A stretch of DNA of 64,000 nt from Alkalispirochaeta sp. (GCA_965242725.1 CBDESZ010000012.1:65247-129246); one strand, 5' to 3'. Numbered from the stretch's first letter, positions 6,083-20,241 are shown. Program-made: numbers and translations. Notes: a model not told the origin generated them from the sequence alone.

Positions 6083-6202
6083 GCGCGACGGGGATTGACC
6101 GAGAATTCCCAATCCAATAAGTTAAGACGGTCCGGTTGGTCGACAGAGGCGCTCGCCGCCTCGTTACCATTCGCCTCGCGAGAAGAGGCATAGCCGGTAC
6201 AT

Positions 6203-6276
6203 GCCCCGGTAGCTCAGCAGGATAGAGCAACTGCCTCCTAAGCAGTAGGTCACCCGTTCGAATCGGGTCCGGGGTA
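6203..6276 (+). tRNA. tRNA-Arg(CCT)
   Basis: Cloverleaf with GCCCCGG/CCGGGGT acceptor stem, GCTC/GAGC D-stem, ACTGC-CTCCTAA-GCAGT anticodon arm and ACCCG-TTCGAAT-CGGGT T-arm. CCA is not encoded. Confidence 0.97.
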
Positions 6277-6277
6277 A
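6233..6277 (+). repeat. Left att core (within the intact tRNA)
   Basis: GCCTCCTAAGCAGTAGGTCACCCGTTCGAATCGGGTCCGGGGTAA is identical to 14683-14727. Confidence 0.95.
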
Positions 6278-6319
6278 TTTATAAACCATTTTAATATAAC
6301 GATTTATTAACACGGTACT

Positions 6320-6341
6320 AAGCGCCTTCGGGCGTTTTTTT
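6320..6341 (+). terminator. Intrinsic terminator downstream of the tRNA, supplied by the element
   Basis: AAGCGCC-TTCG-GGCGTTT followed by further Ts. Confidence 0.7.
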
Positions 6342-6428
6342 ATTATCTGTTGCAGAAACGGTTGCAACTTTTTATTGTGACTATTAGACATTTATGTTAT
6401 ATTCAATATGAGAGGTTAAAAATTAAGG

Positions 6429-7754
6429 ATGAGAGGCGCAAAACTACCGTATCCGGAACCATATAAATCTGAAGCAACTGGGGGTAAATTTCATTTCATG
6501 TTCCGAGATCCCCGAACGGGAAAACGACGAAAAAAGTCTACGGGGAAGACGAGTAAAACCGAGGCAATCAAGTTCATCAAAGCCTACATTGATGAACTGT
6601 CACGGAATACTAACGAAGATGGAGAGAAGCCCTTCAGGGAGTACGCTGCATGTTTCTTTATCGACGGCGAGTGTCCACGGCAGCAGCGCATGAGAAACGC
6701 CCGGAAATCTTTCGGTGCTCGTCATATGCGGGATATGCGGCAAAATTTGGAAAGGGTCATTGGTCGCCCTGCCAATGGTAGAAAAAAAGCCCGCAAATCT
6801 TTACCCTTTGCCGATCTAAAACTGTCAATGATTACCCGTTCCGACATATATGACCTGCAAGATAAGCTGTCCCGGTCTCCCGGTGGACGAAGCGGACAAT
6901 TAGCTTTTCAAGCGGTAAAAACCGTACTAAGCGAGGCAACCGAACGCGGCGTTATAGAACGCTCTCCGGCAGACGGAATCGGCGCGTATAAACGGCCTGA
7001 AGCGGGAAGCGGGGAGAAAGGCGAGGAGAAAAGACGCGCCGCTTTCAATTATGAGGAGTACTCATTCCTATGGCAAAATCGAAACACAATTGCAAAACCA
7101 TCGGCCAATGGTATCGGATGGGGGCGTATAGTTGACGGTGCCGATGACGATCCCCGGCACGTCATGACGCTATCGCTTCTATTGGCTCTAGGCGTCCGTG
7201 TTTCTGAATTGCGCGCCTTACGATGGCGACATGTAAACCTTGAAACCGGAACGATAGACATCGTGGAAGCATTCAAGGGCGGTAACGCGGGCGACGCTAT
7301 AGGCTTGCCGAAATGGGGAAAGACCCGCCCCGGTCTCAAAATACCAGTACCATTGATAGGTGACCTTAAGACCTACAGGCAACATATGGAAACAAGAGAC
7401 ACCTCACTTGTTCGCCCTGACACTTTCATTATTTGCAATCCTGAAGGCGGCCCAGTCGGGGAAACTTTCGTACAGAAAACGTGGAAAACGATTAAGAAAA
7501 ACACCGGTGATTCAATCGGCTGGACTGACCGATGGTTAACACCTCATTCCTGCCGACACACTTTGAACACACTTCTATTAATCAATGAAGCACCGCCGTT
7601 GCAGATTCAAACTTTTCTTGGATGGGAGAGCGCCGCCGGAAAAGCGCTAGCTGAAATGCAACGTGGTTATATGGTCATCTTGAAATGGCCGGAACGGCGA
7701 AAGTTGCGGAAGCAATTGCCGAAATACTGGAACTTTCAGAAGCGGAAAACGTAA
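6429..7754 (+). CDS. Tyrosine integrase; probable 2-nt slip after the catalytic Tyr, true end likely 7771
   Basis: N-terminal arm-binding-like region (RKKSTGKTSKTEA); catalytic motifs GVRVSEL, LPKWGK, HSCRH, LGW and RGY; adjacent to att. Confidence 0.92.
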   Translation: MRGAKLPYPEPYKSEATGGKFHFMFRDPRTGKRRKKSTGKTSKTEAIKFIKAYIDELSRNTNEDGEKPFREYAACFFIDGECPRQQRMRNARKSFGARHMRDMRQNLERVIGRPANGRKKARKSLPFADLKLSMITRSDIYDLQDKLSRSPGGRSGQLAFQAVKTVLSEATERGVIERSPADGIGAYKRPEAGSGEKGEEKRRAAFNYEEYSFLWQNRNTIAKPSANGIGWGRIVDGADDDPRHVMTLSLLLALGVRVSELRALRWRHVNLETGTIDIVEAFKGGNAGDAIGLPKWGKTRPGLKIPVPLIGDLKTYRQHMETRDTSLVRPDTFIICNPEGGPVGETFVQKTWKTIKKNTGDSIGWTDRWLTPHSCRHTLNTLLLINEAPPLQIQTFLGWESAAGKALAEMQRGYMVILKWPERRKLRKQLPKYWNFQKRKT

Positions 7755-7922
7755 TCACGATGACACGATAGATTTATAGCAAGTTGGCCCGTTTTTTGCT
7801 TCCATGTTGTTGACATTTGTTTTTATGTATGATAAATTAAATATTGTAACAAATTTCTCAAATCAAACCGGTTAGTTCAGATATTGTTGAGGAAGGCTGA
7901 AGACCACCACAGAGGGGGTCGT

Positions 7923-8105
7923 ATGTCCAAACTCTACAACTACAATGAAGCCGCTGAATATCTCGGTATCAGTCCGTCCACACTTCGCAAATGGGTATGT
8001 AGCGGTAAAATCGCTTGCACCAAACTGGGCACCGGTCCCAAAGCTCCCGTCCGATTCACTGAGGAACAACTTAAAGCGGTCTTGTCGGTTTATGCTGCTA
8101 TTTAG
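7923..8105 (+). CDS. Excisionase-like helix-turn-helix protein (Xis/AlpA-type)
   Basis: 60-aa protein MSKLYNYNEAAEYLGISPSTLRKWV...VRF with a GAGGGGG SD. Confidence 0.85.
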   Translation: MSKLYNYNEAAEYLGISPSTLRKWVCSGKIACTKLGTGPKAPVRFTEEQLKAVLSVYAAI

Positions 8106-8320
8106 CATAAGCTACCGATAAGAGAAAAATTTCTCCATATTGTATAATACATAAATCGTCGAATTTACCGGCGTGCTAGTGACGGCGCAATGCTATTATT
8201 AGTGGTTTCTGTTTAATTTTTACGTGTATATGCCCTTGGTAAAGGTGTATCCAAATGAATAAACAGACCTAATTAATAGCCTATCTGTACTAGCAATCTA
8301 TTACCTATAGAGGCTAGTAA

Positions 8321-8942
8321 ATGTATCAATCAAATCAATCCACCAATCAACAAGTATTACCAATAGCAAAGGACACCTTTGAATCTATGGTAATCCCCGT
8401 TCCTTTCATCACTATTAGCAGACCATCATACTGGCATGATGACATGGATATAACTCTTCCACAATATTCTATCCAAATCGAAACGAATGCTTTTCGGAAA
8501 AACCCGGATAGGTCAACAATCCACTATCACCGCCGTCTTTTCAGTTGAGCATCACTCCCGCCACGGGATAGCAACTACGAATGAACACGTACATGCTTTG
8601 GTTACAATCGATTCCCCGGAATATTCCGACATCTTTTCGTTTACACTTTGGGAACTGTTAGGCATGGACAAGAAGAAAGACCGTATCGATACCTTTCAAA
8701 CAGACAACTATCCTTCAACTCGTAATGATTGGATTACTAACCGTCCCGTTACTTTTTCAATCGGTAACAGACAGATTAACTTCCCTCTCAAACCACAAAT
8801 TTACAATCAACTAGATAACGATTTTCAATTAGCTAATCCATCAGACTATCAAGTAATCATGCACTATTCCGGCAAATCGGAAAGTCTGGAAAGGCGTTTC
8901 AACCTTGAACCTCTTTCATACTCCGGGTATTGGCAGGTATAA
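8321..8942 (+). pseudogene. HUH rolling-circle Rep-like protein split by a frameshift near 8450 (real mutation or assembly indel)
   Basis: Motif-1-like FITIS in ORF 8321-8548. The second frame is open from 8454 and carries HUH motif EHVHALV and motif-3-like YSGK (YxxK), in the canonical 1-2-3 order. Confidence 0.6.
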
Positions 8943-8969
8943 TATGTTAGTTTTGTATCTGGTTTGGCT

Positions 8970-9599
8970 ATGAATGAAGCGCACGATAACTGGTTAAAAT
9001 TCCTTAACCCGGAAGAACTCTATAAGAACTTTCTTCTATCATCTTTATTTATTACTACGCATAACCTGTTAAAATCTTCGATAGTCGGAAGAATCCGATC
9101 TTTTTATAATTGCAGGTTTGACAGTACTGGTTGGCACACCGGAATTGACTACGAACAAAAAGTATTGAGTCTCGACGACAAGAAAGACGTACTGCGTTCT
9201 TCCATAAATTGGTTGTTCGATATGCAAATCATCGATGAACTTGATAAGGAAACAATTGAGAAGGCCAGACGTCATAGAAATGACTTAGCACACGAAATGC
9301 TAAAATATCTTTCTGATGTCAAACATGAAATCGACATCGAATTACTTCAATCGATGCGTGACCTAATAGACAAGATTGAACGATGGTTCATCTTTGAAGT
9401 AGAAATACCCACGGAACCGGATATGACGGCGGAGGAGTTTAATTCTATAAATTGGGATGAAGTACGATCAATGACTATGCTTACACTCGATTACGTTCAA
9501 TTAGCCATATTCGGAGATATTGAGACTACTTCCCGCATGTATGAACAATTGAAAGACACGTTAACGAAACGAAATACAAACGCTGAATCCACAGATTGA
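8970..9599 (+). CDS. HEPN-motif (Rx4H) protein, putative RNase or defence cargo
   Basis: ~209-aa helical-looking protein with RHRNDLAHE. Confidence 0.6.
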   Translation: MNEAHDNWLKFLNPEELYKNFLLSSLFITTHNLLKSSIVGRIRSFYNCRFDSTGWHTGIDYEQKVLSLDDKKDVLRSSINWLFDMQIIDELDKETIEKARRHRNDLAHEMLKYLSDVKHEIDIELLQSMRDLIDKIERWFIFEVEIPTEPDMTAEEFNSINWDEVRSMTMLTLDYVQLAIFGDIETTSRMYEQLKDTLTKRNTNAESTD

Positions 9600-9639
9600 A
9601 ATTGTCGTATTTCGGATACCCAGTTACCGGAATAATATC

Positions 9640-9756
9640 CTACTTCTTTTTCTTCTTCGGTTTGTCCGTCTCTGTAACTGTCGTTTTCGGGTGCTTTTTC
9701 GCAGTCCCTTTTTTAACGTACTGTCCAGTTATTGCGGATCGTTCTTTTTTCGCCAT
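9640..9756 (-). CDS. 38-aa lysine-rich small protein, not in the ORF track
   Basis: MAKKERSAITGQYVKKGTAKKHPKTTVTETDKPKKKKK with a strong GGGAGG SD 8 nt upstream of the ATG. Confidence 0.75.
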   Translation of the reverse strand: MAKKERSAITGQYVKKGTAKKHPKTTVTETDKPKKKKK

Positions 9757-9939
9757 AAGTCTACCCTCCCATTGGATACTTAATGTCTGTATAGTACGCT
9801 AACAACCTGTATAGTTTTATGCAATAGACTACTAGAAAATATTTTTAAAAAAAAAACGATCACGTTATGAGTACTTTTCATTTCTGTATTGTAGCGAGGT
9901 CAAAAGAGATCCTTTTCCCTTTTCGTGTAGAATTCGGCA

Positions 9940-10281
9940 ATGAATCACACCTTCATTCAAAACGCCCTTAAAGAGTACATAGAAAACACTCCCGCCCTGA
10001 CCTACACCTTCACCAACCTGAAAACACGGAGCTTCAAAGCCAGAAATCCCCGCACAAGACTAACCGGTGAGATCCGGCTAACCGGGAACGATCTTGACCG
10101 CTTTTTCCGCAAGGGACAAATGTTTAAGAGATCCGGCTTCATTGTTTTCATCACTTCGATAGGAAAACAGGGAAATACTTTCGTTGTCAAATACAGATGC
10201 GACCTACCCGCGATATCGGAGAGCGCTATACCTTCACCGGCAGACACCTATACATACCGTGTTCCGTTATTTGAGAGATAG
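9940..10281 (+). CDS. Hypothetical protein (element)
   Basis: 113-aa ORF, first of three closely spaced co-oriented ORFs. Confidence 0.55.
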   Translation: MNHTFIQNALKEYIENTPALTYTFTNLKTRSFKARNPRTRLTGEIRLTGNDLDRFFRKGQMFKRSGFIVFITSIGKQGNTFVVKYRCDLPAISESAIPSPADTYTYRVPLFER

Positions 10282-10288
10282 ATAATCT

Positions 10289-10489
10289 ATGGAGAATTAC
10301 ACAATCCAAAAAGGCCATAATGGGAAGCATAGAATCATCCTGCACGTTCCCATAGAAGAAACGAAAGACCGGGTACAACAATTACTTAATACCATGAGAG
10401 ACGAATTCAAGGATTATCGAATTCAAATGTACAGTACCGTAGTAATAGACCGGGAATTCATCACAAATATCGACGTATGGAATAATTGA
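10289..10489 (+). CDS. Hypothetical protein (element)
   Basis: 66-aa ORF 7 nt after the preceding stop codon. Confidence 0.5.
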   Translation: MENYTIQKGHNGKHRIILHVPIEETKDRVQQLLNTMRDEFKDYRIQMYSTVVIDREFITNIDVWNN

Positions 10490-10519
10490 GTAATTCCGTA
10501 AACTTAAAAGGAAAAGACA

Positions 10520-10744
10520 ATGGAAGAATTACGAATTCAGAACCTTAAAGGAACACTATCGGGAGCCGCAAAAAGAACCGTACACGATGAACAAAAGATA
10601 CCTATCAGGGAGCTGGAAACAGTCACGGTAGGGCGTGCAATCATCGTGCTACATGAAGACAAAGCGGTAGACGGTTTTATTGTTATTGACGGGGAATTAA
10701 ATCCATTGGTAGCAGGCAAGAAACCGGAAGATTACTTAGATTGA
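10520..10744 (+). CDS. Hypothetical protein (element)
   Basis: 74-aa ORF with an AAGGA SD. Confidence 0.55.
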   Translation: MEELRIQNLKGTLSGAAKRTVHDEQKIPIRELETVTVGRAIIVLHEDKAVDGFIVIDGELNPLVAGKKPEDYLD

Positions 10745-10998
10745 ATCAATGCAGAAAAGCCCCTTTCCGCTAGCCTAGTCCCTCGCAACTCTGACCGACC
10801 GCTACCGAGGGTATTTTATCGGTCCCCGACCGACAAACTACCCTAATGTATCACAATTGTATATATATACAGTAATTATGTATAAATATGCAATATTAAA
10901 TTGAACACGATTCCGGGACAACACCATACCCATATTGTACACCACACTGCTCCCTCCCGCTACCCCTCAAATTCTCCCCTGAATTCTTCCATATTTAT

Positions 10999-11026
10999 AT
11001 ACTCGATAAGACTAATTATGTTATAT
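10999..11026 (+). other. dif-like (Xer-type) recombination site
   Basis: ATACTCGATAA-GACTAA-TTATGTTATAT has an 11-6-11 layout. The right arm matches the E. coli XerD arm TTATGTTAAAT at 10 of 11 positions, and the site lies 10 nt upstream of a Xer-like gene. Confidence 0.6.
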
Positions 11027-11036
11027 ATGGTATAAT

Positions 11037-11870
11037 ATGAGTATGGAAAACAAAGAGATCACGACGACTAAAAACCATTTTGACCTTGAGACCATCCCGG
11101 CAATGTATCGGAGTGAAGCCCGTAAATTTATACAATATGTTGAGGAACACGGATTCACGGTGGAGACCTATCAAGACTTTATAGAGAGTCTCCGGGATGA
11201 CTACAAAGCCCGGACGGTCAACAAGCATATTGCCGCCTGCCGGTCTGTAATCCGCTCCATGTTCGACGATCCGAGTATAACGGACCTTCAGAAGTATCGG
11301 CTACAAAAAGCGCTTGAAACCGTCTCATACGTCAAACTTGCTCCCAGTGAAAAACAGGTGACGGGTACCCTCTCCCCTGAAGAAGTGGAAACACTTGTGA
11401 CTAGATCCCCTGCCCGTACTGCCCTTATCATTCGATTTCTGGCCGTAACAGGGTGCCGGGTATCGGAATTGACGGGAATTCGCCTCAATAAATGCAAGAC
11501 GGATGGTCAGAAAGCGGTGATTCAGGTGATAGGCAAAGGAAACAAAGCAAGAACAATCCGAATACACCTGAATCTCTATACTAAGATCCGCAAAGCGTTC
11601 CCCGGAGAGATCTTTCTTTTTGAATCGAAAAGCGGAAACGCCCTTAATACCCGAAATATTTACAAGGAAATTGTAAGACTTTCCCTGAAGCATTTGGAGG
11701 GAAAGAGGGTTACCCCTCATGACTTCCGGCACTATTTCGCCACTCAAAAAGGCGTTGAGACGGGCAATTGGAAAGGCGTATCTGAGTATTTAGGCCACGC
11801 CTCGACACAAACCACGATGGATATGTATGTTCATACGTCACTGTCAGACGCCGATTTAGGCATAGCCTGA
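11037..11870 (+). CDS. Second tyrosine recombinase, XerC/D-like, with no arm-binding domain
   Basis: TGCRVSEL, GKGNKAR, HDFRH, YLGH and TTMDMY give a complete catalytic set. Confidence 0.93.
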   Translation: MSMENKEITTTKNHFDLETIPAMYRSEARKFIQYVEEHGFTVETYQDFIESLRDDYKARTVNKHIAACRSVIRSMFDDPSITDLQKYRLQKALETVSYVKLAPSEKQVTGTLSPEEVETLVTRSPARTALIIRFLAVTGCRVSELTGIRLNKCKTDGQKAVIQVIGKGNKARTIRIHLNLYTKIRKAFPGEIFLFESKSGNALNTRNIYKEIVRLSLKHLEGKRVTPHDFRHYFATQKGVETGNWKGVSEYLGHASTQTTMDMYVHTSLSDADLGIA

Positions 11871-12249
11871 ATCTATACCCCCTCAGAATCCCCTCAGAAC
11901 GTCACAGCGCCGTTCTAAGCCCGTCTAATGGTTTAGTGGTACTTCATAGTCATTTAGTGCCCGGAAACGGGCTTACAAGCTAAACTGAGCGGTGTATCTT
12001 TCGGACAAGGTTACTCGATGCGCTGAATTCGCTTTCCTAGCTAGGCCGCAAAAAATCTTGTAATAAATTTTTTAGAATTTTTTACCGATAAGTAATTTTT
12101 TATCTAATATGGTAAAATTCACTTACTCTTTGGAAAGCGGTGGCGGGATGACCACACGGAATAGGTCAAGGGGTTAAGTGCCATTAGTTTCCGCCTGTTC
12201 TGGAATATGCCCGCCACCAAATTCTTACAACGGAACGGACACGGAGAAT

Positions 12250-12678
12250 ATGGGCAGACCTAAAAGCGAATTTCTACAATCCAACGCCAGTACTCAAATT
12301 TCGATCAGTCGGGTAACCGCTTCCCATGAAGACGATACCGATGACGATATCTTTGACACTCCCATATCCCCTGAAGAGGAACAACGCGCCCTTGAGACCG
12401 TCCGCAAAAGAGATTACCGCCTACGGAAGAGAATATCCCAGCCCCAGAAAAATGAAAGCACCTTGAATGATTCCATGCTGGCCGTCTTCCAGCGTCACGC
12501 AATAGAGCTTGCAAACACTGAAGTAATGGCGTCAAAGGATATCCGTACCCTGAACGGTCTCTATGATTCTATTTCCCGTGAATCCCGATTGTGGGAGGAG
12601 TTATATCAGCAACGAACGGAAATTAAGGAAATCGTGCAGCAACTCCGGGAGCTGGAAAAAAGCGTAAAGAGGATCTAA
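12250..12678 (+). CDS. Hypothetical protein, first gene of the putative late operon (possible small-terminase-like)
   Basis: GGAG SD, MGRPK start and C-terminal coiled coil. The function is inferred from position only. Confidence 0.5.
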   Translation: MGRPKSEFLQSNASTQISISRVTASHEDDTDDDIFDTPISPEEEQRALETVRKRDYRLRKRISQPQKNESTLNDSMLAVFQRHAIELANTEVMASKDIRTLNGLYDSISRESRLWEELYQQRTEIKEIVQQLRELEKSVKRI

Positions 12679-12682
12679 CAAC

Positions 12683-12970
12683 ATGGCTAGTACGCAATCA
12701 ATAAAAAATAGAATCGAGAAACTAACAGAGGCGGACAAATCATGGTCCGATAGCGTGGAATTCCGCCCGCAATCAATGGGCCTACGGGTATGGCTCCTCC
12801 ATCCTGACGGGTCTCGAGACCGTATCGTCATGAACGTGCCCGGAGATCCGCCCAGCGTAGAAAGCAGACATACAGGGAAGCGTCTCCCTATCGAACAATG
12901 GGACAGACTTTCAACGCTAGCAAAATCACAATGGATTAAGACGGGAACATACAGGCAGGACCGGAAATAA
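12683..12970 (+). CDS. Hypothetical protein (late operon)
   Basis: 95-aa ORF, 4 nt after the previous stop codon, with an AGAGGA SD. Confidence 0.6.
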   Translation: MASTQSIKNRIEKLTEADKSWSDSVEFRPQSMGLRVWLLHPDGSRDRIVMNVPGDPPSVESRHTGKRLPIEQWDRLSTLAKSQWIKTGTYRQDRK

Positions 12971-13049
12971 ATAAAGGAAACAACCGCCCTGAGAGGCGGA
13001 AACAAAGCGGCAGAACCGCAAATCTAAACAGACCCCGGAGGGTACATAC

Positions 13050-13556
13050 ATGGACACGAACGAAATCAGAGATTTCTTGAAAAACGATCCGGACGGTCAA
13101 GCGCTTTTTGCAGAGCTTACCGACGGATTGAAGGGAAATAGGGACCGGATTTTGACCGAAAAAAAGAGTCTACAGGAACAGCTTAATGACCTTTCCGGTC
13201 AATTGGAAACCATTACGGACCAATTGAACAGGGAACGTCAACGATCAAATGAACTGACAGCCCAGAAGGCAATAAACAGCGAATTTGACCGCTACAATGT
13301 GCCCCGTGATGTCCGCCCTATCCTTGAGAAACACTTTTCAGGTCTGGAAGGCCTTCAGATTGACGACAGCGGGACTGTCAACGTTGGTGAGACTGCCCTT
13401 TCTGAATACATGGATTCTTTTTTCATGTCGGAAGCCGGGAAGAGATTCACCACGGTACGAAGTGCGGGGTCTGGAAGCTCCGGTTCATACGGCACAACCC
13501 CAAATTCTGAAGAACAGAATTTCAGGGAAGCGCTCTCAAAATCACTTAGAAATTAA
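13050..13556 (+). CDS. Phage capsid scaffolding protein-like
   Basis: Acidic coiled-coil protein with a Gly/Ser linker (SAGSGSSGS) and a short C-terminal helix, located directly upstream of the capsid gene. Confidence 0.7.
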   Translation: MDTNEIRDFLKNDPDGQALFAELTDGLKGNRDRILTEKKSLQEQLNDLSGQLETITDQLNRERQRSNELTAQKAINSEFDRYNVPRDVRPILEKHFSGLEGLQIDDSGTVNVGETALSEYMDSFFMSEAGKRFTTVRSAGSGSSGSYGTTPNSEEQNFREALSKSLRN

Positions 13557-13567
13557 AGGATATTTAT

Positions 13568-14410
13568 ATGGCATTATCAGCAGCAATACCAACGATTGTC
13601 GGTGAGGCAATCCTTGAATCACTCCGGGAAAATCTCGTTTATGGAAGTCTTTTCAATGAAGACTACATCGGAGACGTGAAACCGGGCAACGCGGTCAAGA
13701 TCCCCAGTATCGGGTCTGTCACAATCGGAAACTATACGGCGTACACCGACATGGACGATGAAGCGGTTTCTGACAGTTCCCAGACTCTTAGTATCGATCA
13801 ACAAAAGTATTTTTCCATCGTTATGGACGACGTAGACGCGGCAATGTCAAAGCCTCGCGTCATGGCGGCTTATGCGCGTGAAGCAAGTCACCAAATGCAG
13901 GCGACGATTGACAGCTATTTAGCCGGTGTACTCGCGGCAGGCGGTACGATTACGACCGACCTGGGAGACGACACCACGCCGCTTGAGATCAACAGCGCAA
14001 ATGTCGGAAGTACTCTCCGCCTGATTGCGCGTAAGCTCGATGACGCAAAGGTACCCCGCGCCGGTCGTTTCGTGGTCGTTCCGCCTTGGATGGTAGAGGA
14101 TCTTGTGTCCGCAAATATCACGGATAGCACCAACAACGTGGACGCTATCAGTAACGCGATGGTTGCCCGTTATGGCGGTTTTGACGTGCTCATGAGTCAT
14201 CAGGTGCCGAATACCGAAAGCGCAAAGTATAAGATTGTGGCCGGTACTAATCTCAGTGCTACTATGGCGCTGGCAATCGATCAGACTGAACTGATCCGGC
14301 ACCCTACCCAGTTTGCCGACAAGTTGCGTGGTCTCGCGGTCTATGGCTCAAAGGTAACACGGGCGGCAGCTCTCGCGGTTGCTACCTGTAACGAGGCTGC
14401 GGAAGCGTAG
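13568..14410 (+). CDS. Major capsid protein (P22-coat-like family, HK97 fold)
   Basis: Recognisable blocks IPTI...LVYG.LFN.DY.GD...G..VKI, LSIDQQKYF...DDVD, KLDDAKVP..GRF.VV and FAD.LRGL.VYG.KV.R..AL. Confidence 0.88.
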   Translation: MALSAAIPTIVGEAILESLRENLVYGSLFNEDYIGDVKPGNAVKIPSIGSVTIGNYTAYTDMDDEAVSDSSQTLSIDQQKYFSIVMDDVDAAMSKPRVMAAYAREASHQMQATIDSYLAGVLAAGGTITTDLGDDTTPLEINSANVGSTLRLIARKLDDAKVPRAGRFVVVPPWMVEDLVSANITDSTNNVDAISNAMVARYGGFDVLMSHQVPNTESAKYKIVAGTNLSATMALAIDQTELIRHPTQFADKLRGLAVYGSKVTRAAALAVATCNEAAEA

Positions 14411-14461
14411 TTAAACTAGTTCCCATTACCGCCCCCTGACCGGGAGCGGGAACTCCGTTCT

Positions 14462-14494
14462 ACCGCCCAGTGTCCAAGCGCTGGGCGGTTTTTT
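14462..14494 (+). terminator. Intrinsic terminator after the capsid gene
   Basis: ACCGCCCAG...CTGGGCGGT followed by TTTTT. Confidence 0.85.
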
Positions 14495-14515
14495 GTAACT
14501 GAATTCTGCGACTAC

Positions 14516-14547
14516 TTGCAACCATGGTTGCAAAATGGTTGCAACTT
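14516..14547. repeat. GGTTGCAA repeats, probable integrase arm-binding sites
   Basis: Perfect 18-bp palindrome TTGCAACCATGGTTGCAA plus GGTTGCAACTT. The same 11-mer occurs at 6360-6370 near the left end. Confidence 0.65.
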
Positions 14548-14682
14548 CCCCGTACTAATAAAAAAACAAAGAAGAACATAGAAGAACATAGATATTCAAT
14601 AATTATCTACTATGTAACGGTTTATATCCTAACAATAAACAGATAGGAACATTGCGGAAAATATCGGAAAACGCCGATAAAC

Positions 14683-14727
14683 GCCTCCTAAGCAGTAGGT
14701 CACCCGTTCGAATCGGGTCCGGGGTAA
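14683..14727 (+). repeat. Right att core (duplicated tRNA-Arg 3' half)
   Basis: 45-bp exact copy of 6233-6277. Confidence 0.95.
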
Positions 14728-14773
14728 AGCGAACGCTCCGCGTTCGCTGACTCGAGAGAGAATGACTGACGTC

Positions 14774-14899
14774 TACTGAAAGCGCGACAGGCGAATCGAA
14801 AGATTCGCCGATAGCGCATTCGCGTTTTCCGACTCGTTGGGAAACGCTTACCTATACTGAACGCGCGACAGGCGAAAGCGAAGCTTTTGCCGATAGCGC
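14774..14899 (+). repeat. Two ~45-bp hairpin-containing direct repeats
   Basis: TACTGAAAGCGCGACAGGCGAATCGAAAGATTCGCCGATAGCGC (14774-14817) and TACTGAACGCGCGACAGGCGAAAGCGAAGCTTTTGCCGATAGCGC (14855-14899). Confidence 0.75.
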
Positions 14900-15040
14900 C
14901 GCCAAACCCAAACAAACGACAGATGCCCGAGTTGGTGAACCGTGGGCGATTCAGGAGGTGGCGATAGACGGGGAACCACACCTCACTCTCCTCCTACACG
15001 CCAGGTGCGGAGCAACGGACCCGCTTTCAGCAGAGACCGC

Positions 15041-15520
15041 TCACCGCAGCTTGTGGAGTTCCTCAACCGCGGAGCGGGGGGAGAGAACGGGAACGGGGGA
15101 GATGCCGGTATAGTCGTCGGTATTGTCCGTAATAATTGCGCTCACGTGATGACATCCCGCCGCGGCTACGACGTTCGCATCGTGTATCCTCTTGCCCTTC
15201 AGAGAGTGAGTCTCCACCAGAGCGATGAGTTCATCATGTATCTCTGCACTCTCCGGCAGAAGATGGGTCCGCGTACGGAACGCCCGAATGTTCCGTACGG
15301 CGTCACTCGTATCGAGACCGAGACCGTCTGCCTCCACCGGTCTGGTTGCCACCACAAGATACTCCCGCAGGATCTGTCCGATCGTCACGAGGTGTACTCC
15401 CGCCCGGGCCGGGAGTCGAAACAGTTCGGTACACAGGGCGTGACTATTGCGAGACCGATCCTTGGCGGCGAGCAGGACATTGGGATCGAGAAGGAGCGTA
15501 TTACCGCGCGTCATTGTCAT
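15041..15520 (-). CDS. vapC: PIN-domain toxin (VapC-like)
   Basis: LLDPNVL, ILREY, HDANVVA and ITDNTDDY acidic PIN motifs; overlaps the antitoxin gene. Confidence 0.85.
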   Translation of the reverse strand: MTMTRGNTLLLDPNVLLAAKDRSRNSHALCTELFRLPARAGVHLVTIGQILREYLVVATRPVEADGLGLDTSDAVRNIRAFRTRTHLLPESAEIHDELIALVETHSLKGKRIHDANVVAAAGCHHVSAIITDNTDDYTGISPVPVLSPRSAVEELHKLR

Positions 15521-15731
15521 ATATCTCCTGGCGAGACCACGGATCGTTCCGGCGGGTGCGCGTCATGACAAGAAGAAGGGGCTCGTCCATGTCGGGGGTC
15601 GGTGCATACCGCGATGCCTCTTCCAGAATTGCCTTAAACTCCCCTTGCACCGAACGATGATGAGCCCGGGCAAGTCGCTGCAGGTCTTCCAACACTCGTT
15701 CATCGACATCACGTATGTGTAGCGATTTCAT
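15501..15731 (-). CDS. FitA-like ribbon-helix-helix antitoxin
   Basis: MKSLHIRDVDERVLEDLQRLARAHHRSVQGE, upstream of the PIN gene. Confidence 0.85.
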   Translation of the reverse strand: MKSLHIRDVDERVLEDLQRLARAHHRSVQGEFKAILEEASRYAPTPDMDEPLLLVMTRTRRNDPWSRQEIYDNDAR

Positions 15732-15865
15732 ACTGGTTTCATATTGCTACCATCAGAAATCTGTCAACGCGGACCTGAGGCGCGTCGACGCCTGCTCGAA
15801 TCATTTCAAATAAATGGTATGAGTTCCCGAAATTTGCTACCCTTCTCCAATCAAGGGAGGCGACT

Positions 15866-16201
15866 ATGGCGACGGCGAAACTGCTCTGGACGACGGACAA
15901 CAAAGATACCGCGTTGAATATGCTGTGTCTTTACGGACATAACGCAAAGCTGCAGGGGTGGATGGACGAGGTTGAGATTCTCGTCTGGGGTGCTTCCCAG
16001 AATCTGATTGCCCGAGATACGGAAGTTCAGGCAAAAGTAAAGGCAATGATAAACGACGGTGTAAAGATCACCGCCTGTAAAAAGTGCGCCGAGAATATGG
16101 GTGTCGAGCAGGAGCTATCCTCATGCAGTATCGAGGTCTATTACACCGGAAAGCTGTTGAGCGAATGGATTAAATCCGGGGAGAGCATCATCACGGTTTA
16201 G
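15866..16201 (+). CDS. DsrE-family protein
   Basis: EILVWGAS and ACKKCAE motifs; GGAGG SD. Confidence 0.8.
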   Translation: MATAKLLWTTDNKDTALNMLCLYGHNAKLQGWMDEVEILVWGASQNLIARDTEVQAKVKAMINDGVKITACKKCAENMGVEQELSSCSIEVYYTGKLLSEWIKSGESIITV

Positions 16202-16298
16202 CAAAAAGCATATTCCTTCGGAATCTGTGTTATGCGATCCGGGCTCACGTTGCATGTGCGCTCCATTCGATCTATGTTGATATGGAAGGGGGTATGCA

Positions 16299-16979
16299 GT
16301 GTTACGAGGACATGTATACAAGTTGACGGTCGGTGTCGTTCTGCTTTCCTTTATCCTTCTTACCGTTTCATGCGCAACTTCACCGAAAACTCAATGGGTC
16401 GATCCCGACTATGACGGCGGGCCGGTCAGGAAGATCGTCGTCATCGGCATGTTTCGAAACCTCGCCAGCAGAACCGCCTTTGAGCGCGAAATCGTCGATC
16501 TCATAAATGCCAGGTCCGGAACACGGGCGGTTTCGAGCCTGGAATTCATGGCGCCGAACACGAAGTATGAATATGCCGCCATGGAATCCCGGTTCAGGGA
16601 AATGGGAATCGACGGGATCCTTATTATACGGACCCGATCAATTGACAACACCGCCGAGTTCATTCCCGGGGCAACCTATACCGTCCGGGAAGCGGTTCCG
16701 TACTACCAGTACCAGAATCCGTACTATTACCGATATTACGTTTACACCTATACGACCATTCGAGAACCCGGGTACTACATGCATACGGCAATCGTCAGCA
16801 CTGAAAGCACCCTTTTTCTGAATGGGAACGACAGGATGATCTGGACGATGGAAATGAATACGACACAGAAGTACAGAACGATCGACGGTATCACCAATCC
16901 AGGACATGAAGCGCCGTTATCGGCGACGGCAATATTGAACGGTCTCAGGAAGAACAGGCTGTTACTGCCCCGAGGCTGA
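16299..16979 (+). CDS. Putative lipoprotein
   Basis: Lipobox LTVSC and a Tyr-rich segment. Confidence 0.7.
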   Translation: MLRGHVYKLTVGVVLLSFILLTVSCATSPKTQWVDPDYDGGPVRKIVVIGMFRNLASRTAFEREIVDLINARSGTRAVSSLEFMAPNTKYEYAAMESRFREMGIDGILIIRTRSIDNTAEFIPGATYTVREAVPYYQYQNPYYYRYYVYTYTTIREPGYYMHTAIVSTESTLFLNGNDRMIWTMEMNTTQKYRTIDGITNPGHEAPLSATAILNGLRKNRLLLPRG

Positions 16980-17077
16980 ACGTACCGTAAGGTGCGACGG
17001 CGGGACGGGCTTTCCACACTGTAGCCGGTACATCCGACCCGGTGATCGGTGTAGAATACGCAGAATAAGGAGGCACC

Positions 17078-17281
17078 ATGATTCGTTTTATTTTCGGGAT
17101 TCTTCTGGGAATTCTTATCATCATTTTTGCCGCGCAAAATACCGAGATCGTACAATACACCTTCCTGGTCTGGACGCTCACCGCGCCTCGTGCCCTGGTT
17201 GTGATCGGCGTCTTCCTGCTCGGCCTGGTGAGCGGTTGGCTGGCGACCGGGATGCGTGTGCTCCTCCGTCGCAGCCATTAA
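17078..17281 (+). CDS. LapA/DUF1049-like small membrane protein
   Basis: Two transmembrane helices with IFAAQN...V...FL.W; AAGGAGG SD. Confidence 0.8.
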   Translation: MIRFIFGILLGILIIIFAAQNTEIVQYTFLVWTLTAPRALVVIGVFLLGLVSGWLATGMRVLLRRSH

Positions 17282-17327
17282 CCTCCCCGGCACCCGTATC
17301 CCCGGTCACCGAGTCGGCATCGTTCAG

Positions 17328-18209
17328 TCACATTTTTGAAGCGTGTTTCATGACGAGATATCCATACAGCCGTCGGGGAGTCATTCGGCCGATCAGGACG
17401 ATGAGCCGGTTGGTCCAACCGGGAATGTATACGGGATTGCTCGTGCCGCGTCGGCGCGCGAGGTGGCGGAGAGATCGGCGGACAACCTCCTCCGCTGCCA
17501 TCCATCGGACGATACCGCGATTACGACGTGCCTCCGCAGTCCATCCGAGTCGATCATGAAACTCTGTGTGGGTGAATCCCGGACAGAGAGCCTGTATGTG
17601 CACACCCTTCTGGGACATTTCCGGCTGAAGGGCCAGGGCAAGCTCCACGAGAAACCGCTTGGATGCGGTGTACATCGCCTGTTCCGGAGCGGGAAGAAAC
17701 GCCGCAATCGACGAGACGAGAATAATCGACGGCGGCAACGGAGCGAAACCGAGTTTCGCTTCCGATCGGGGATCCTCACTACGGGACGCGCCGGATACGA
17801 TCCGGGGAAATGCGGCGGAAATGAACTCAACAGCCGATTGCATGTGCACGTCTCCCATACCGACAACGTCGTCGGTAGAACTTTCCAGGAAGGAAGCAGG
17901 TAAGCCGTAACCGGCGTTGTGGATGAGTATTTCCAGATCGTCCCGCCCTGACAATTTATTTCTCAACGCCTCACGGACGTTCCGTTCGCGCAAGTCTCCG
18001 ATGACCGTTTCCACGTGCGGCCTCTCCGGAATGTCGTCACTTCCCCGAGCCGCGGCGATGAGTGCCGAAGTGTCTCCGGCGAGGTCCGCCAACGTATCAC
18101 GCCGCCTCCCCGAGATAATTAAACGGTACCCGAGACGGGCCAGGGCGATCGCGTAAGCCTTCCCGAGTCCGCTGGTCGCACCGGTTATACACGCTGAGGC
18201 GCTTCTCAC
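17328..18209 (-). CDS. Short-chain dehydrogenase/reductase
   Basis: TGATSGLG, HNAG, YTASK and LCPGFTHTEF motifs. Confidence 0.92.
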   Translation of the reverse strand: MRSASACITGATSGLGKAYAIALARLGYRLIISGRRRDTLADLAGDTSALIAAARGSDDIPERPHVETVIGDLRERNVREALRNKLSGRDDLEILIHNAGYGLPASFLESSTDDVVGMGDVHMQSAVEFISAAFPRIVSGASRSEDPRSEAKLGFAPLPPSIILVSSIAAFLPAPEQAMYTASKRFLVELALALQPEMSQKGVHIQALCPGFTHTEFHDRLGWTAEARRNRGIVRWMAAEEVVRRSLRHLARRRGTSNPVYIPGWTNRLIVLIGRMTPRRLYGYLVMKHASKM

Positions 18210-19180
18210 GAGGTGATCTCCACGCAGTCACGTCCTTTCGCTTTTGCCCGGTAGAGAGCACTATCGGCGGCGGATATCAGATGTTTGGCGGTCGCGCCGT
18301 GGTCCGGCCAGACTGCGATTCCCTGACTGGTCGTAATAGGTGCAATTACGGCGCCGTCCGGGGCGGAAAACGGCCGGGACGCAAGGGCCGAACGGAGTTT
18401 TGCGCAAAGCCGTCTCGCCTTTGCCGCGGATGTCCGGGGTAAGACGATGATGAATTCATCACCGCCGTACCGCACCAGGATGTCCCCATCCCTGAATGTT
18501 TCGCGCATGATGTTGGATACGTGAACGATGATTTTGTCACCCACATGTGGTCCGTATTGTCCGTTCAGGGCGGTGAAGTTATCCAGATCCAGCATAATAA
18601 CGGTGAGAGGTGCGTCGGTGGTACGCAGGGGATTCACTTTTTCCGTAAGAATTTCATCAAGATATCTGCGGTTGTACATACCGGTAAGCTCATCGGTAAA
18701 GGCGCGGCTTCGCGCGGTTTCGCCCCATTCAACCATCTCCGAGAGTAGCGCGCCGGTATTTTCCAATCGTCCCACTATTTTTTCAAGGATTGCCTGCATG
18801 ATCGCGATGGCGGCGCGGGGCCGAATGTGGATGAGTGTGTGAAAATCGGACTCGTGAAGTTGCAGGACCTCCGCATCTTCGATGGCACGACACGTCGCGG
18901 AACGAGGCGCGTGTTCAAAGACGGACATTTCACCGAGAAAGTCTCCCGGCCCGAGTGTCGCAACGGTCAATTCGCCTCCCCCTTCCGTGGAGATAATGAC
19001 GCCGATCGTCCCTGTTCTGACGACGTACAATGAGTCACCGGCGTCACCCTGGGCAAACAGGGTTGCTCCTTTCTCCAAATTGCGAGGCGTAAGGAGTCGC
19101 GCCGCGTATCGTCTCTCGTCCAGCGACAGCGACGAGAATATGGAAACCTCCTCGAGAAATGGGGCCAGTGTATCTATCAC
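18206..19180 (-). CDS. cNMP-binding diguanylate cyclase, intact
   Basis: cNMP pocket GEMS...PRSA, RYGGDEF active site and RDGD I-site. Confidence 0.92.
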   Translation of the reverse strand: MIDTLAPFLEEVSIFSSLSLDERRYAARLLTPRNLEKGATLFAQGDAGDSLYVVRTGTIGVIISTEGGGELTVATLGPGDFLGEMSVFEHAPRSATCRAIEDAEVLQLHESDFHTLIHIRPRAAIAIMQAILEKIVGRLENTGALLSEMVEWGETARSRAFTDELTGMYNRRYLDEILTEKVNPLRTTDAPLTVIMLDLDNFTALNGQYGPHVGDKIIVHVSNIMRETFRDGDILVRYGGDEFIIVLPRTSAAKARRLCAKLRSALASRPFSAPDGAVIAPITTSQGIAVWPDHGATAKHLISAADSALYRAKAKGRDCVEITS

Positions 19181-20241
19181 GATTGAGAACTCCCGTCGTA
19201 GAGAGCATCGCCGGGTCCTTCGCGAGCCTCCGTGATCCGATGTACGGCAATATCAAAAAGGTGTGCCCCGGGACTCTCACCGGTCCGTATGGTCTTGCGC
19301 CGGTCATGGCGGCGAGGAATGCCCTCATCAGCTGTGGAACGACCTCCCCTCTCTAAATCCTCCGGCGCGGCGGCAATGGCAATACTGACGGTGATCCGTA
19401 GTGACCGATCCTCGGTCAGCGGGAATAGGTCGATTTTTCTGATCCGGGATTGCAGTTTCCTGGCAAGTTTCCTTGCCTTTTCCCGGCCGAGCCCCGGTAG
19501 CAGGGCGACGAGTTCGTTTCCTCGAGTGCGCACAGGTATGCCGATTGATTGGATGTCCTCCCGAAATACGTGTGCGACCAGCTGCAATACCGCGTCACCG
19601 ACGCCGTGGCCGTATCGATCATTCAAATCCTTAAACCGGTCGGGTTTACAGACAAGTACCGCCGACCGTTTTTTTTCAGCGGCGGCAAAGGAACCGAGGG
19701 CGTCTTTCAGGTAGGTGGAATTGTATAAACCGGTCAGTTTATCGGTATAGACTTGTCGGCGTATTTCCGTGACGAGGGAGCTCTTCTTCCCGAGGAGTTC
19801 ATTGGCGGTGCGAATCCGCCCGGCCACGTAGGCGATAAGCTTGGAAAGAATACCGGCAAACTGTTCGGGGTTTTCGTGGACGAGAGAGGCAAAGGTTGTC
19901 GATCGATTCGGGATGGTGAGAAGGGTGCCCGCCGTCGCGGCAACGGCTTCGGCGGAGCGGGTCGACCTCCGAAGAACGTCCATTTCGCCGAACGGTTCTC
20001 CCGGAACATACCGGGCGACATCCCGACTGCGGTGCTTGTCCTGGCGCTGGCGTATGACAACTTCGCCGGAGGCAACGAAGAGAAAGACCTCTGCGGGATC
20101 TCCCTCCTGAAATATCGTTTGACCTTCCTCGATCGATTCAATTGCGGAGTTCGCAGCCAAAAGGGCAATTTCAGCTTCGCTCAGATTTTGAAAAATCGGA
20201 CATGCACCGATCAACGTATGAAGCGGGTTATTCTGATCCAT
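19177..20241 (-). CDS. cNMP-binding protein with a degenerate GGDEF domain
   Basis: GEMD...TRSA pocket; DKLTGLYN and NDRYGHGVGD present, but the active site reads RGNEL. Confidence 0.88.
   Translation of the reverse strand: MDQNNPLHTLIGACPIFQNLSEAEIALLAANSAIESIEEGQTIFQEGDPAEVFLFVASGEVVIRQRQDKHRSRDVARYVPGEPFGEMDVLRRSTRSAEAVAATAGTLLTIPNRSTTFASLVHENPEQFAGILSKLIAYVAGRIRTANELLGKKSSLVTEIRRQVYTDKLTGLYNSTYLKDALGSFAAAEKKRSAVLVCKPDRFKDLNDRYGHGVGDAVLQLVAHVFREDIQSIGIPVRTRGNELVALLPGLGREKARKLARKLQSRIRKIDLFPLTEDRSLRITVSIAIAAAPEDLERGGRSTADEGIPRRHDRRKTIRTGESPGAHLFDIAVHRITEAREGPGDALYDGSSQS

Follow-up and report, generated by a model that had tools for sequence, protein, structure and literature searches.

P4-like satellites carry the genes for the alpha primase/helicase, Sid, Psu and Delta, and the capsid-forming variants (cf-PICIs) among phage-inducible chromosomal islands (PICIs) encode a portal. 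PICIs have a median size of about 9.5 kb, were located on chromosomes in more than 99.9% of cases in one survey, and count a capsid gene among the five core components defined in SatelliteFinder; cf-PICIs also encode a large terminase (TerL), a head-tail adaptor and a connector (10.1101/2022.09.14.508007). Capsid genes are carried by PmCI172 and EcCICFT073 (c1499) (PMC6092414), and PICIs with such a gene make small heads, as reported for PmCI172 (PMC6092414) and for SaPIbov5 with its Ccm protein (PMC5052747). Aguilar et al. 2026 (Nat Commun, PMC13669383) described gut genomes of about 8.75 kb encoding an integrase, sometimes an excisionase, a RepA/helicase, a major capsid protein (MCP) and a scaffold, with no terminase, portal or tail, and proposed satellite or single-stranded DNA (ssDNA) lifestyles for them. 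We analysed here a stretch of 64,000 nucleotides from Alkalispirochaeta sp. (GCA_965242725.1 CBDESZ010000012.1:65247-129246; hereafter, the window), which contains, at positions 6233-14727, a small tRNA-integrated element with its own capsid and scaffold genes. From its gene content and its relatives, we favour with moderate confidence the reading of a PICI-like spirochaete satellite that would supply its own head shell and borrow portal, terminase and tail.

The element starts within a host tRNA-Arg(cct) gene (6202-6277, + strand), whose 3' 45 nt form the left attachment site (attL, 6233-6277), and ends at attR (14683-14727, + strand), a 100% identical 45-nt copy of the tRNA 3' end. The two copies of this perfect repeat are 8450 bp apart, and the 45-nt sequence is present in only two copies in the whole genome (G000), both bounding the element. 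Both ends are thus intact, as the original prediction had stated. The GC content is 0.448 within the element vs. 0.599 and 0.566 in the flanks. Every gene of the element lies on the + strand, in the order integrase, Xis-like helix-turn-helix (HTH) gene, HUH-like gene, HEPN-like gene, three orphans, second recombinase, 142-aa protein, 95-aa protein, scaffold and capsid. Profile scans (Pfam, PHROGs, NCBIfam) of all 13 open reading frames (ORFs) of the element gave no match to a portal, TerL, tail, holin or head-tail gene, nor to the P4-like families. Besides the integrase (441 aa), the MCP (280 aa) and the second recombinase (277 aa), all ORFs are at most 211 aa long; as no unassigned ORF exceeds this length, a portal or a TerL cannot hide in the element. 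The presence of a capsid and a scaffold without portal, large terminase or tail, first noticed from the DNA alone, is therefore confirmed. From the initial gene list, the integrase, Xis, second recombinase and capsid stood, whereas the HEPN match proved weak and the HUH-like gene gave no hidden Markov model or PDB match.

The element falls within the size range (5-11.6 kb) of the mini genomes of Aguilar et al. and agrees with their gene content: it has an integrase, an MCP and a scaffold, whereas terminase, portal and tail are lacking. The original prediction had presented the combination as unrecognised; this part was not supported, since the layout is already in print (PMC13669383) and the core components of PICIs include a capsid gene that comes without portal or TerL. 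The main group of Aguilar et al. comes from the human gut and carries encapsulin-domain MCPs, whereas the window MCP is of the P22-gp5/N4-gp56 type without encapsulin Pfam match. A further difference is that members of the window element's family occur both within chromosomes, bounded by att sites, and as plasmids with ParA. The string “Spiroch” does not occur in the text or the four supplements of PMC13669383.

The element shares with PICIs carrying a capsid gene (SatelliteFinder PICI type A among them) an integrase-first organisation, a capsid without portal or TerL, the absence of a tail and accessory cargo. Unlike PICIs as described in the sources cited, it has no primase-replicase, no AlpA/Stl match and no recognisable small terminase (TerS), and it shows in addition a separate scaffold gene, a second recombinase and, in its family, free plasmid forms. 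As regards the PICI components, we found an integrase with att sites, a capsid gene (recognised by its PHROGs profile and its fold) and no tail, holin, TerL or head-tail gene. The primase-replicase module is missing from the window and present in the relatives L044, L047, L048 and L098. Like cf-PICIs (10.1101/2022.09.08.507074), the element has its own capsid and no tail; their TerL, adaptor/connector and portal are absent from the window. The window element would work like a capsid-encoding PICI, and departs from PICIs by the primase module and from cf-PICIs by portal and TerL.

Two other described groups share parts of this organisation. Prochlorococcus PICI-like tycheposons are tRNA-integrated, with modular replication genes and an MCP or TerS gene as the only packaging gene (10.1101/2020.12.28.424599); they belong to another phylum, and no scaffold or plasmid form is described in the covered part of that report. 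In SRCEs and pSSVx, which are plasmid-like and act as satellites of archaeal spindle-shaped viruses, a plasmid replicon is combined with an incomplete morphogenesis module (10.1101/2025.02.15.638363); they belong to another domain, and their capsid fold, as far as that source goes, is not HK97. VEIMEs were considered as the closest kin and rejected, as they have no capsid genes; Charybdis elements were also set aside, as they have another fold.

The head cassette comprises genes for a 142-aa helical protein with a C-terminal coiled coil (12250-12678), a 95-aa protein named X (12683-12970), a head scaffolding protein (13050-13556; phrog_206, E = 4e-5, a weak match) and an HK97-fold MCP of the P22-gp5/N4-gp56 type (13568-14410; phrog_267 major head protein, E = 5e-54). 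The 142-aa gene occupies the same position as a TerS-like gene of the relatives, protein X is homologous to a protein of the circle L047/L053 (21%, E = 6e-5), and the scaffold family is common to the relatives and to the siphovirus L027. A terminator-like hairpin with a 12-bp stem and a T run (14462-14499, + strand) closes the operon; eight terminator-like sites were observed vs. 8.6 expected, and the hairpin alone is not significant. An AlphaFold2 model of the capsid (pLDDT 81) gave as top Foldseek match the Che8 capsid 8e16 (E = 5e-16, TM 0.67), so that the 280-aa protein does model as an HK97 fold, as originally predicted. Encapsulins appear among the fold matches from rank 12 down, and the DNA-packaging genes are missing, two features that one would expect of a shell repurposed as an encapsulin-like compartment, or of an empty particle spread on plasmids or islands, with no DNA packaging. 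However, the best fold and sequence matches are phage capsids, the window MCP matches no Pfam family (0) and has no encapsulin domain (its close relatives carry PF19821/PF25209), no conserved cargo enzyme was found, and the replicons that carry the gene are small in every case and vary little in size. We consider such a compartment highly improbable.

From 8,000 candidates scored, 87 capsid relatives were obtained, 56 of them with at least 45% identity, the window capsid itself counted. Searches with a capsid alignment gave 48 loci in metagenomes, 23 in viral contigs and 2 in genomes; single-sequence scans of viral and genome contigs gave nothing, and an alignment was needed. Two relatives are recorded under named taxa, P0009 (73%) under Alkalispirochaeta americana and P0028 (66%) under Marispirochaeta sp., and point to a spirochaete host. 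The capsid profile matched 6 out of 401 genomes in the class, 3 out of 99 in the order, and 1 out of 38 and 2 out of 7 in two other orders, these counts overlapping; the match in G789 is a fragment of phage-like character, that in G256 a distant capsid, and that in G678 only partial. In PLSDB, 43 capsid matches were found, the 30 listed all showing at most 37% identity and being on records of at least 42 kb.

Small syntenic elements, which the original prediction had suggested looking for, do exist: six further complete relatives were found (seven complete elements with the window), four of them att-bounded (5.9-8.8 kb) and two being circles of ~7 kb. L003 (G002, same genus; 6,533 bp, 50-bp att, tRNA-Asp) carries an integrase, a regulator, Xis, an O-like winged-HTH initiator, TerS-like, X, scaffold and MCP genes. 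L040 (5,947 bp, 42-bp att, tRNA-Lys) has a DUF6291 gene, an HNH-like gene and the MCP; L048 (8,815 bp, 56-bp att, tRNA-Leu) an AAA_25 helicase and a decoration-like gene (phrog_24894); and L097 (G497; ~8.0 kb, tRNA-Leu, imperfect repeat) an O-like winged HTH and a KAP NTPase as cargo. L047, L052 and L053 are one ~7.0-kb circle, recognised by circular permutation, with Prim-Pol, a Xer-like recombinase, 125-aa and 89-aa genes, scaffold, MCP and ParA. The second circle, L098 (G664; 6,872 bp), encodes Prim-Pol, ParA, a recombinase, TerS-like, scaffold and MCP. A dedicated scaffold is located next to a full-length MCP in 6 of the 7 complete elements.

The five integrases are only 24-33% identical where alignable, whereas the MCP of the window shares 44-72% identity with the MCPs of the other four elements found integrated. 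At the DNA level, the window was compared with 12 loci, and the capsid gene was the sole region to match, in L003 and L038. In five fragments (L038, L059, L039, L041, L065), the MCP gene adjoins one homologous to the second recombinase, with ParA in two of them. Judging from these gene comparisons, the window element looks like a chimera, in which an integrase arm was combined with a recombinase and a head cassette taken from a plasmid form.

Four single-base insertions in the window are assembly errors. In contigs of the short-read runs X1-X3 (one sample from one study, probably the source of the assembly), a single base is missing at each of positions 7664, 7667, 8457 and 9847, and one X2 contig covers 6248-14712 and differs by those four gaps alone. 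Further split genes in G000 may likewise reflect assembly errors. The capsid displays a pN of 0.18-0.45 and a pS of 0.75-0.86, at or near saturation, in nine out of nine comparisons. The head cassette (142-aa protein, X, scaffold and MCP) is shown to be intact and under purifying selection. The window element as a whole is real, intact and under selection.

A rival reading is a remnant of a prophage that had lost its portal, terminase and tail genes by internal deletion. The head cassette is of tailed-phage descent, scaffold, MCP and decoration being shared with L027, and the absence of excision in the contigs would also fit such a remnant. To the contrary, the seven complete small elements are independently organised, some inserted in tRNA genes of four kinds and the others circular, synonymous change is saturated while the protein is conserved, and att sites and genes are intact once the assembly errors are allowed for. 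In addition, none of the 24 loci with a capsid identity of at least 40% matched portal, minor-head or head-tail markers (the window and duplicates left out; L008, L049 and L050 being one element), 12 of these 24 loci being shorter than 2.2 kb, whereas 38 of the 55 loci below 40% identity, a redundant set, matched such markers or TerL. The contrast is partly circular, since the phage markers were taken from the phage loci themselves, and the count leaves out the close capsids P0006 (78%, on a phage-sized 48.6-kb contig), P0004 (on a contig of 327 kb) and P0030 (106 kb). L042 (45% capsid), with part of a TerL beside its head genes, is the sole TerL case in the 24 loci. The closest relatives with visible context are not prophages, in line with the original prediction; the remnant reading is largely refuted, and we regard it as very improbable.

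The capsids are at most 39% identical to every portal-bearing phage capsid seen. In a mixture-model tree, the window falls in an 11-row clade (99/97) without any phage-context row, and two further element clades are found; this window clade is unsupported in the LG+G4 tree. When the seven complete elements were constrained together against nine phages, their grouping was not rejected (p-AU = 0.24), which is no proof of a clade; the elements are spread over three capsid clades.

If the element is a satellite, Int and Xis would excise a circle of ~8.45 kb upon infection by a tailed phage. This circle would be amplified, in the window member probably via the HUH-like nickase and a host helicase, and the Xer-like recombinase, a legacy of the plasmid form, may resolve dimers. 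MCP and scaffold would assemble on the helper portal into a small head; a T=4 shell would suit a monomer of 6-9 kb. According to the projection in PMC13669383, a T=3 shell would take about 5 kb and a T=4 shell about 10 kb, so that monomers of 5.9-8.8 kb fit T=4. The 142-aa/X pair (TerS-like/X in the relatives) would steer the helper terminase to the element DNA, and helper neck and tail would complete the particle. The HEPN-like gene, and the KAP NTPase in L097, may represent defence cargo. We hold a satellite way of life to be likely and a complete shell of its own to be fairly likely; we infer that the head is built by the element and the rest borrowed from the helper. More tentatively, and with slightly less than even confidence, we propose a distinct class between PICIs and cf-PICIs: replicons of 6-9 kb that would shuttle between a tRNA-integrated form and a ParA plasmid, with a complete small HK97 head of their own, relying on helper portal, terminase, neck and tail, the helper motor being steered by TerS-like and X, a small module not described before.

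As for the source of the borrowed parts, siphovirus L027 encodes a GP3-type TerS, Terminase_3, a DUF4055 gene in portal position, a minor head protein and a tape measure. Siphoviruses of this type share scaffold, capsid and decoration families with the elements, and by this homology they are plausible as both donors and helpers. When the ORFs of nine phage-context loci were compared with G000, only the capsid, the scaffold and host Xer genes matched. No spacer-like matches were found between G000 and phage or element loci.

Concerning DNA recognition, five of the seven complete elements have a gene of ~70-105 aa, helical with a C-terminal coiled coil, upstream of the variable gene X. We named it TerS-like on account of its position and shape only. 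Its profile gave 678 clusters (at 50% identity) and was found in 9 out of 401 genomes of the class. The family gave no PDB match, and an alignment search of viral contigs gave nothing; Pfam did not confirm a link to TerS of the DUF5681 type. The 142-aa protein of the window is 26% identical in alignment to its L047/L053 counterpart, with no significant BLAST match. A complex prediction for the 142-aa and 95-aa proteins (score 0.02) gave no verdict and was not used as evidence. The TerS-like gene is also found in capsid-less spirochaete tRNA islands: L111 (9577-15030; 5.4 kb), L115 (5217-15845; 10.6 kb; an integrase plus a homolog, at 43%, of the plasmid-type recombinase), L113 and L112. Such capsid-less islands as L111 and L115 are to be expected of a modular PICI-like group. 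In L114 (1210-4264), TerS-like and X lie ahead of a scaffold-like gene and a TerL, without MCP and with no portal seen. L042 (2-2656) shows a TerL C-terminus, an 81-aa gene, scaffold, MCP and decoration, with no portal seen.

Besides the limits of the context count and of the trees given above, several observations weigh against a satellite that makes its own shell. The 142-aa protein gave no TerS match and an hhalign probability of only 2% with the TerS-like family, in which one weak TerS match was found among 90 members (E = 0.007). G000 (91.8% complete) has 0 matches to Terminase_6N, Terminase_3 and Phage_portal, and shows no resident helper. In contigs of runs X1-X4 (one sample; contigs drop rare forms), no attP or attB joint was found, and the element depth is near that of the flanks, not raised. 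No family member was identified among the 23 viral-contig matches. Finally, no scaffold gene was seen in L040, and Ccm of SaPIbov5, an HK97-fold homolog, is unable to replace the helper coat protein (PMC5052747). These last two points, together with the existence of capsid-less relatives and the fact that capsid morphogenesis is a PICI core function (10.1101/2022.09.14.508007), also speak for what is, in our analysis, the main rival reading: a satellite or defence island whose capsid protein would form no shell alone and would act as a modifier, shrinking the helper head by co-assembly, or as a decoy for the helper portal or scaffold. The dedicated scaffold by the full-length MCP in 6 of the 7 elements and the decoration-like gene kept in L048 argue against this Ccm-like role, and the capsid divergence (at most 39% identity to portal-bearing phage capsids) makes co-assembly less likely. 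We therefore consider a modifier or decoy rather unlikely, and retain the satellite with its own shell as our preferred reading.

The replication genes vary between elements: O-like winged HTH (L003, L097), AAA_25 helicase (L048), Prim-Pol (L047, L098), DUF6291 (L040) and HUH-like (window). The HUH-like gene (8321-8942, ~206 aa) displays a motif I-like sequence, HxH and YxxK, and the assembly breaks it in two through one surplus base at 8457. Given this base error, the 75-aa and 151-aa ORFs are one ~206-aa gene, with a ribosome-binding site at the upstream start only. Its natural intact homolog P0240 has 203 aa (61% identity, 95% cover). A pseudogene and a programmed frameshift were considered and dropped for the assembly error, given the short-read contigs and the intact P0240. 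Motifs I, II (HxH) and III (YxxK) are in HUH order, were spotted by eye, and are conserved in P0240, only two sequences being available for this comparison. In the Atlas, P0240 scores 0.96 near clusters of ~200-aa proteins, in one of which PF23343 (REP_ORF2-G2P) is found on 13% of members. Searches of Pfam, PHROGs, PDB and phage sequences brought up no Rep family, the AlphaFold2 model of P0240 is unusable (pLDDT 35), the 151-aa half alone gave no homolog and no Atlas match of at least 0.9, the read-through protein has no relative in viral contigs, and P0240 has none in the phage collection. On the motif evidence, the 206-aa protein likely has an HUH fold, and the chances that it acts as a nickase or rolling-circle initiator appear about even. 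For the window element, we lean only slightly towards rolling-circle replication. The rolling-circle route of the original prediction thus stands in part, through the motif order and one Atlas lead; it does not define the family, since 6 of the 7 complete elements use non-HUH replication genes. Present in 1 of 7, the HUH-like gene is a swapped-in module and not a family trait.

This distribution also bears on the alternative in Aguilar et al. 2026 of an autonomous virus with an HK97 fold and neither portal nor tail, which would package circular ssDNA via an HUH Rep. Motifs I-III, the Atlas score, the lack of a helper in G000 and the fact that the hypothesis is in print (PMC13669383) are in its favour. 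However, HUH is found in only one element of seven, others having initiators of kinds that typify dsDNA replicons (Prim-Pol, helicase or O-like), and we identified no gene for entry, lysis or a pilot protein. Furthermore, TerL in two relatives (L042, L114) ties the cassette to dsDNA packaging. An ssDNA virus is therefore very unlikely in our opinion. Aguilar et al. 2026 (PMC13669383) left the choice between satellite and ssDNA virus open, and the present family bears on it: a head cassette on five kinds of replication genes (one HUH-like), with att sites, plasmid forms, and cousins that are capsid-less or have TerL, favours the satellite reading for this lineage.

The gene layout being already in print, the features that we did not find in the literature are the spirochaete lineage, the P22-gp5-type head cassette, the existence of both an integrated and a plasmid state, and the modularity of the packaging genes. 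The elements are linked to hosts, one capsid protein being recorded under a named species (P0009, Alkalispirochaeta americana). Our literature search found no satellite or PICI in spirochaetes, to which phage satellites would here be extended; the word “Spirochaet” is absent from the SatelliteFinder main text (10.1101/2022.09.14.508007), whose supplements may list hosts. If the proposed class is real, spirochaetes would have their first described satellite family, which would also be a case of a capsid separable from its portal. Portal and capsid are reported normally to co-evolve, and a shell accepting a foreign portal would therefore be structurally interesting.

The remaining genes relate to integration and cargo. 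The tyrosine integrase (6429-7754; phrog_1, E = 4e-33) has its printed C-terminus frameshifted by the errors at 7664 and 7667; the other frame provides the YGH motif and an end near 7770. The 60-aa Xis-like HTH protein (7923-8105) matches HTH_17 (E = 4e-11), TIGR01764 and phrog_66; HTH_17/excisionase is the best assignment, MerR_1 reaching only 22.5 bits vs. a cut-off of 21.6, and no AlpA/Stl match was obtained. The second tyrosine recombinase (11037-11870; phrog_1, E = 2e-32) is Xer-like with intact R-K-HxxR-H-Y motifs. Because its homologs (32-34%) adjoin MCP and ParA in the plasmid forms, it is probably a dimer resolvase. The HEPN-like protein (8970-9599, 209 aa) has one RxxxxH motif and a Pfam HEPN_Cthe2314 match below the cut-off (E = 0.025), a weak indication of a possible anti-phage RNase; PADLOC gave nothing at a useful level. 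In L097 (7585-8979, - strand), a low-GC gene for a KAP-family P-loop NTPase, likely a defence gene, is located between integrase and capsid. Three small ORFs follow the HEPN-like gene: one of 113 aa (9940-10281), which matches no family and has no counterpart in the loci compared, and two orphans of 66 aa (10289-10489) and 74 aa (10520-10744). A promoter scan gave no more sites than shuffled sequences.

Several other loci came to light. A recurring ~14-kb element (L009, L010, L015, L061 and L064, in the last at ~6305-20000) carries a recombinase, a scaffold, a capsid 36-38% identical to that of the window, decoration, adaptor-like genes, TerS, TerL and portal; no tail gene was seen by eye, host genes flank it in L061 and L064, and it looks like a head-only element of the cf-PICI type. 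L099 (5004-10941, in G678) is a 5.9-kb island with a 28-bp repeat, Xis, IS elements and a C-terminal capsid fragment only, perhaps a decayed family member. Just outside attR, the window contains a toxin-antitoxin pair of FitA-like RHH and PIN-like proteins (15041-15731, - strand), preceded by two short repeats ~81 bp apart (14766-14899), whose 30-nt unit has only two copies in the genome. In the same genus, L100 (G014:C59, 1266-7630) shows several short att-like repeats 0.9-5 kb apart after the same tRNA-Arg(cct), which suggests a hotspot of stacked small islands.

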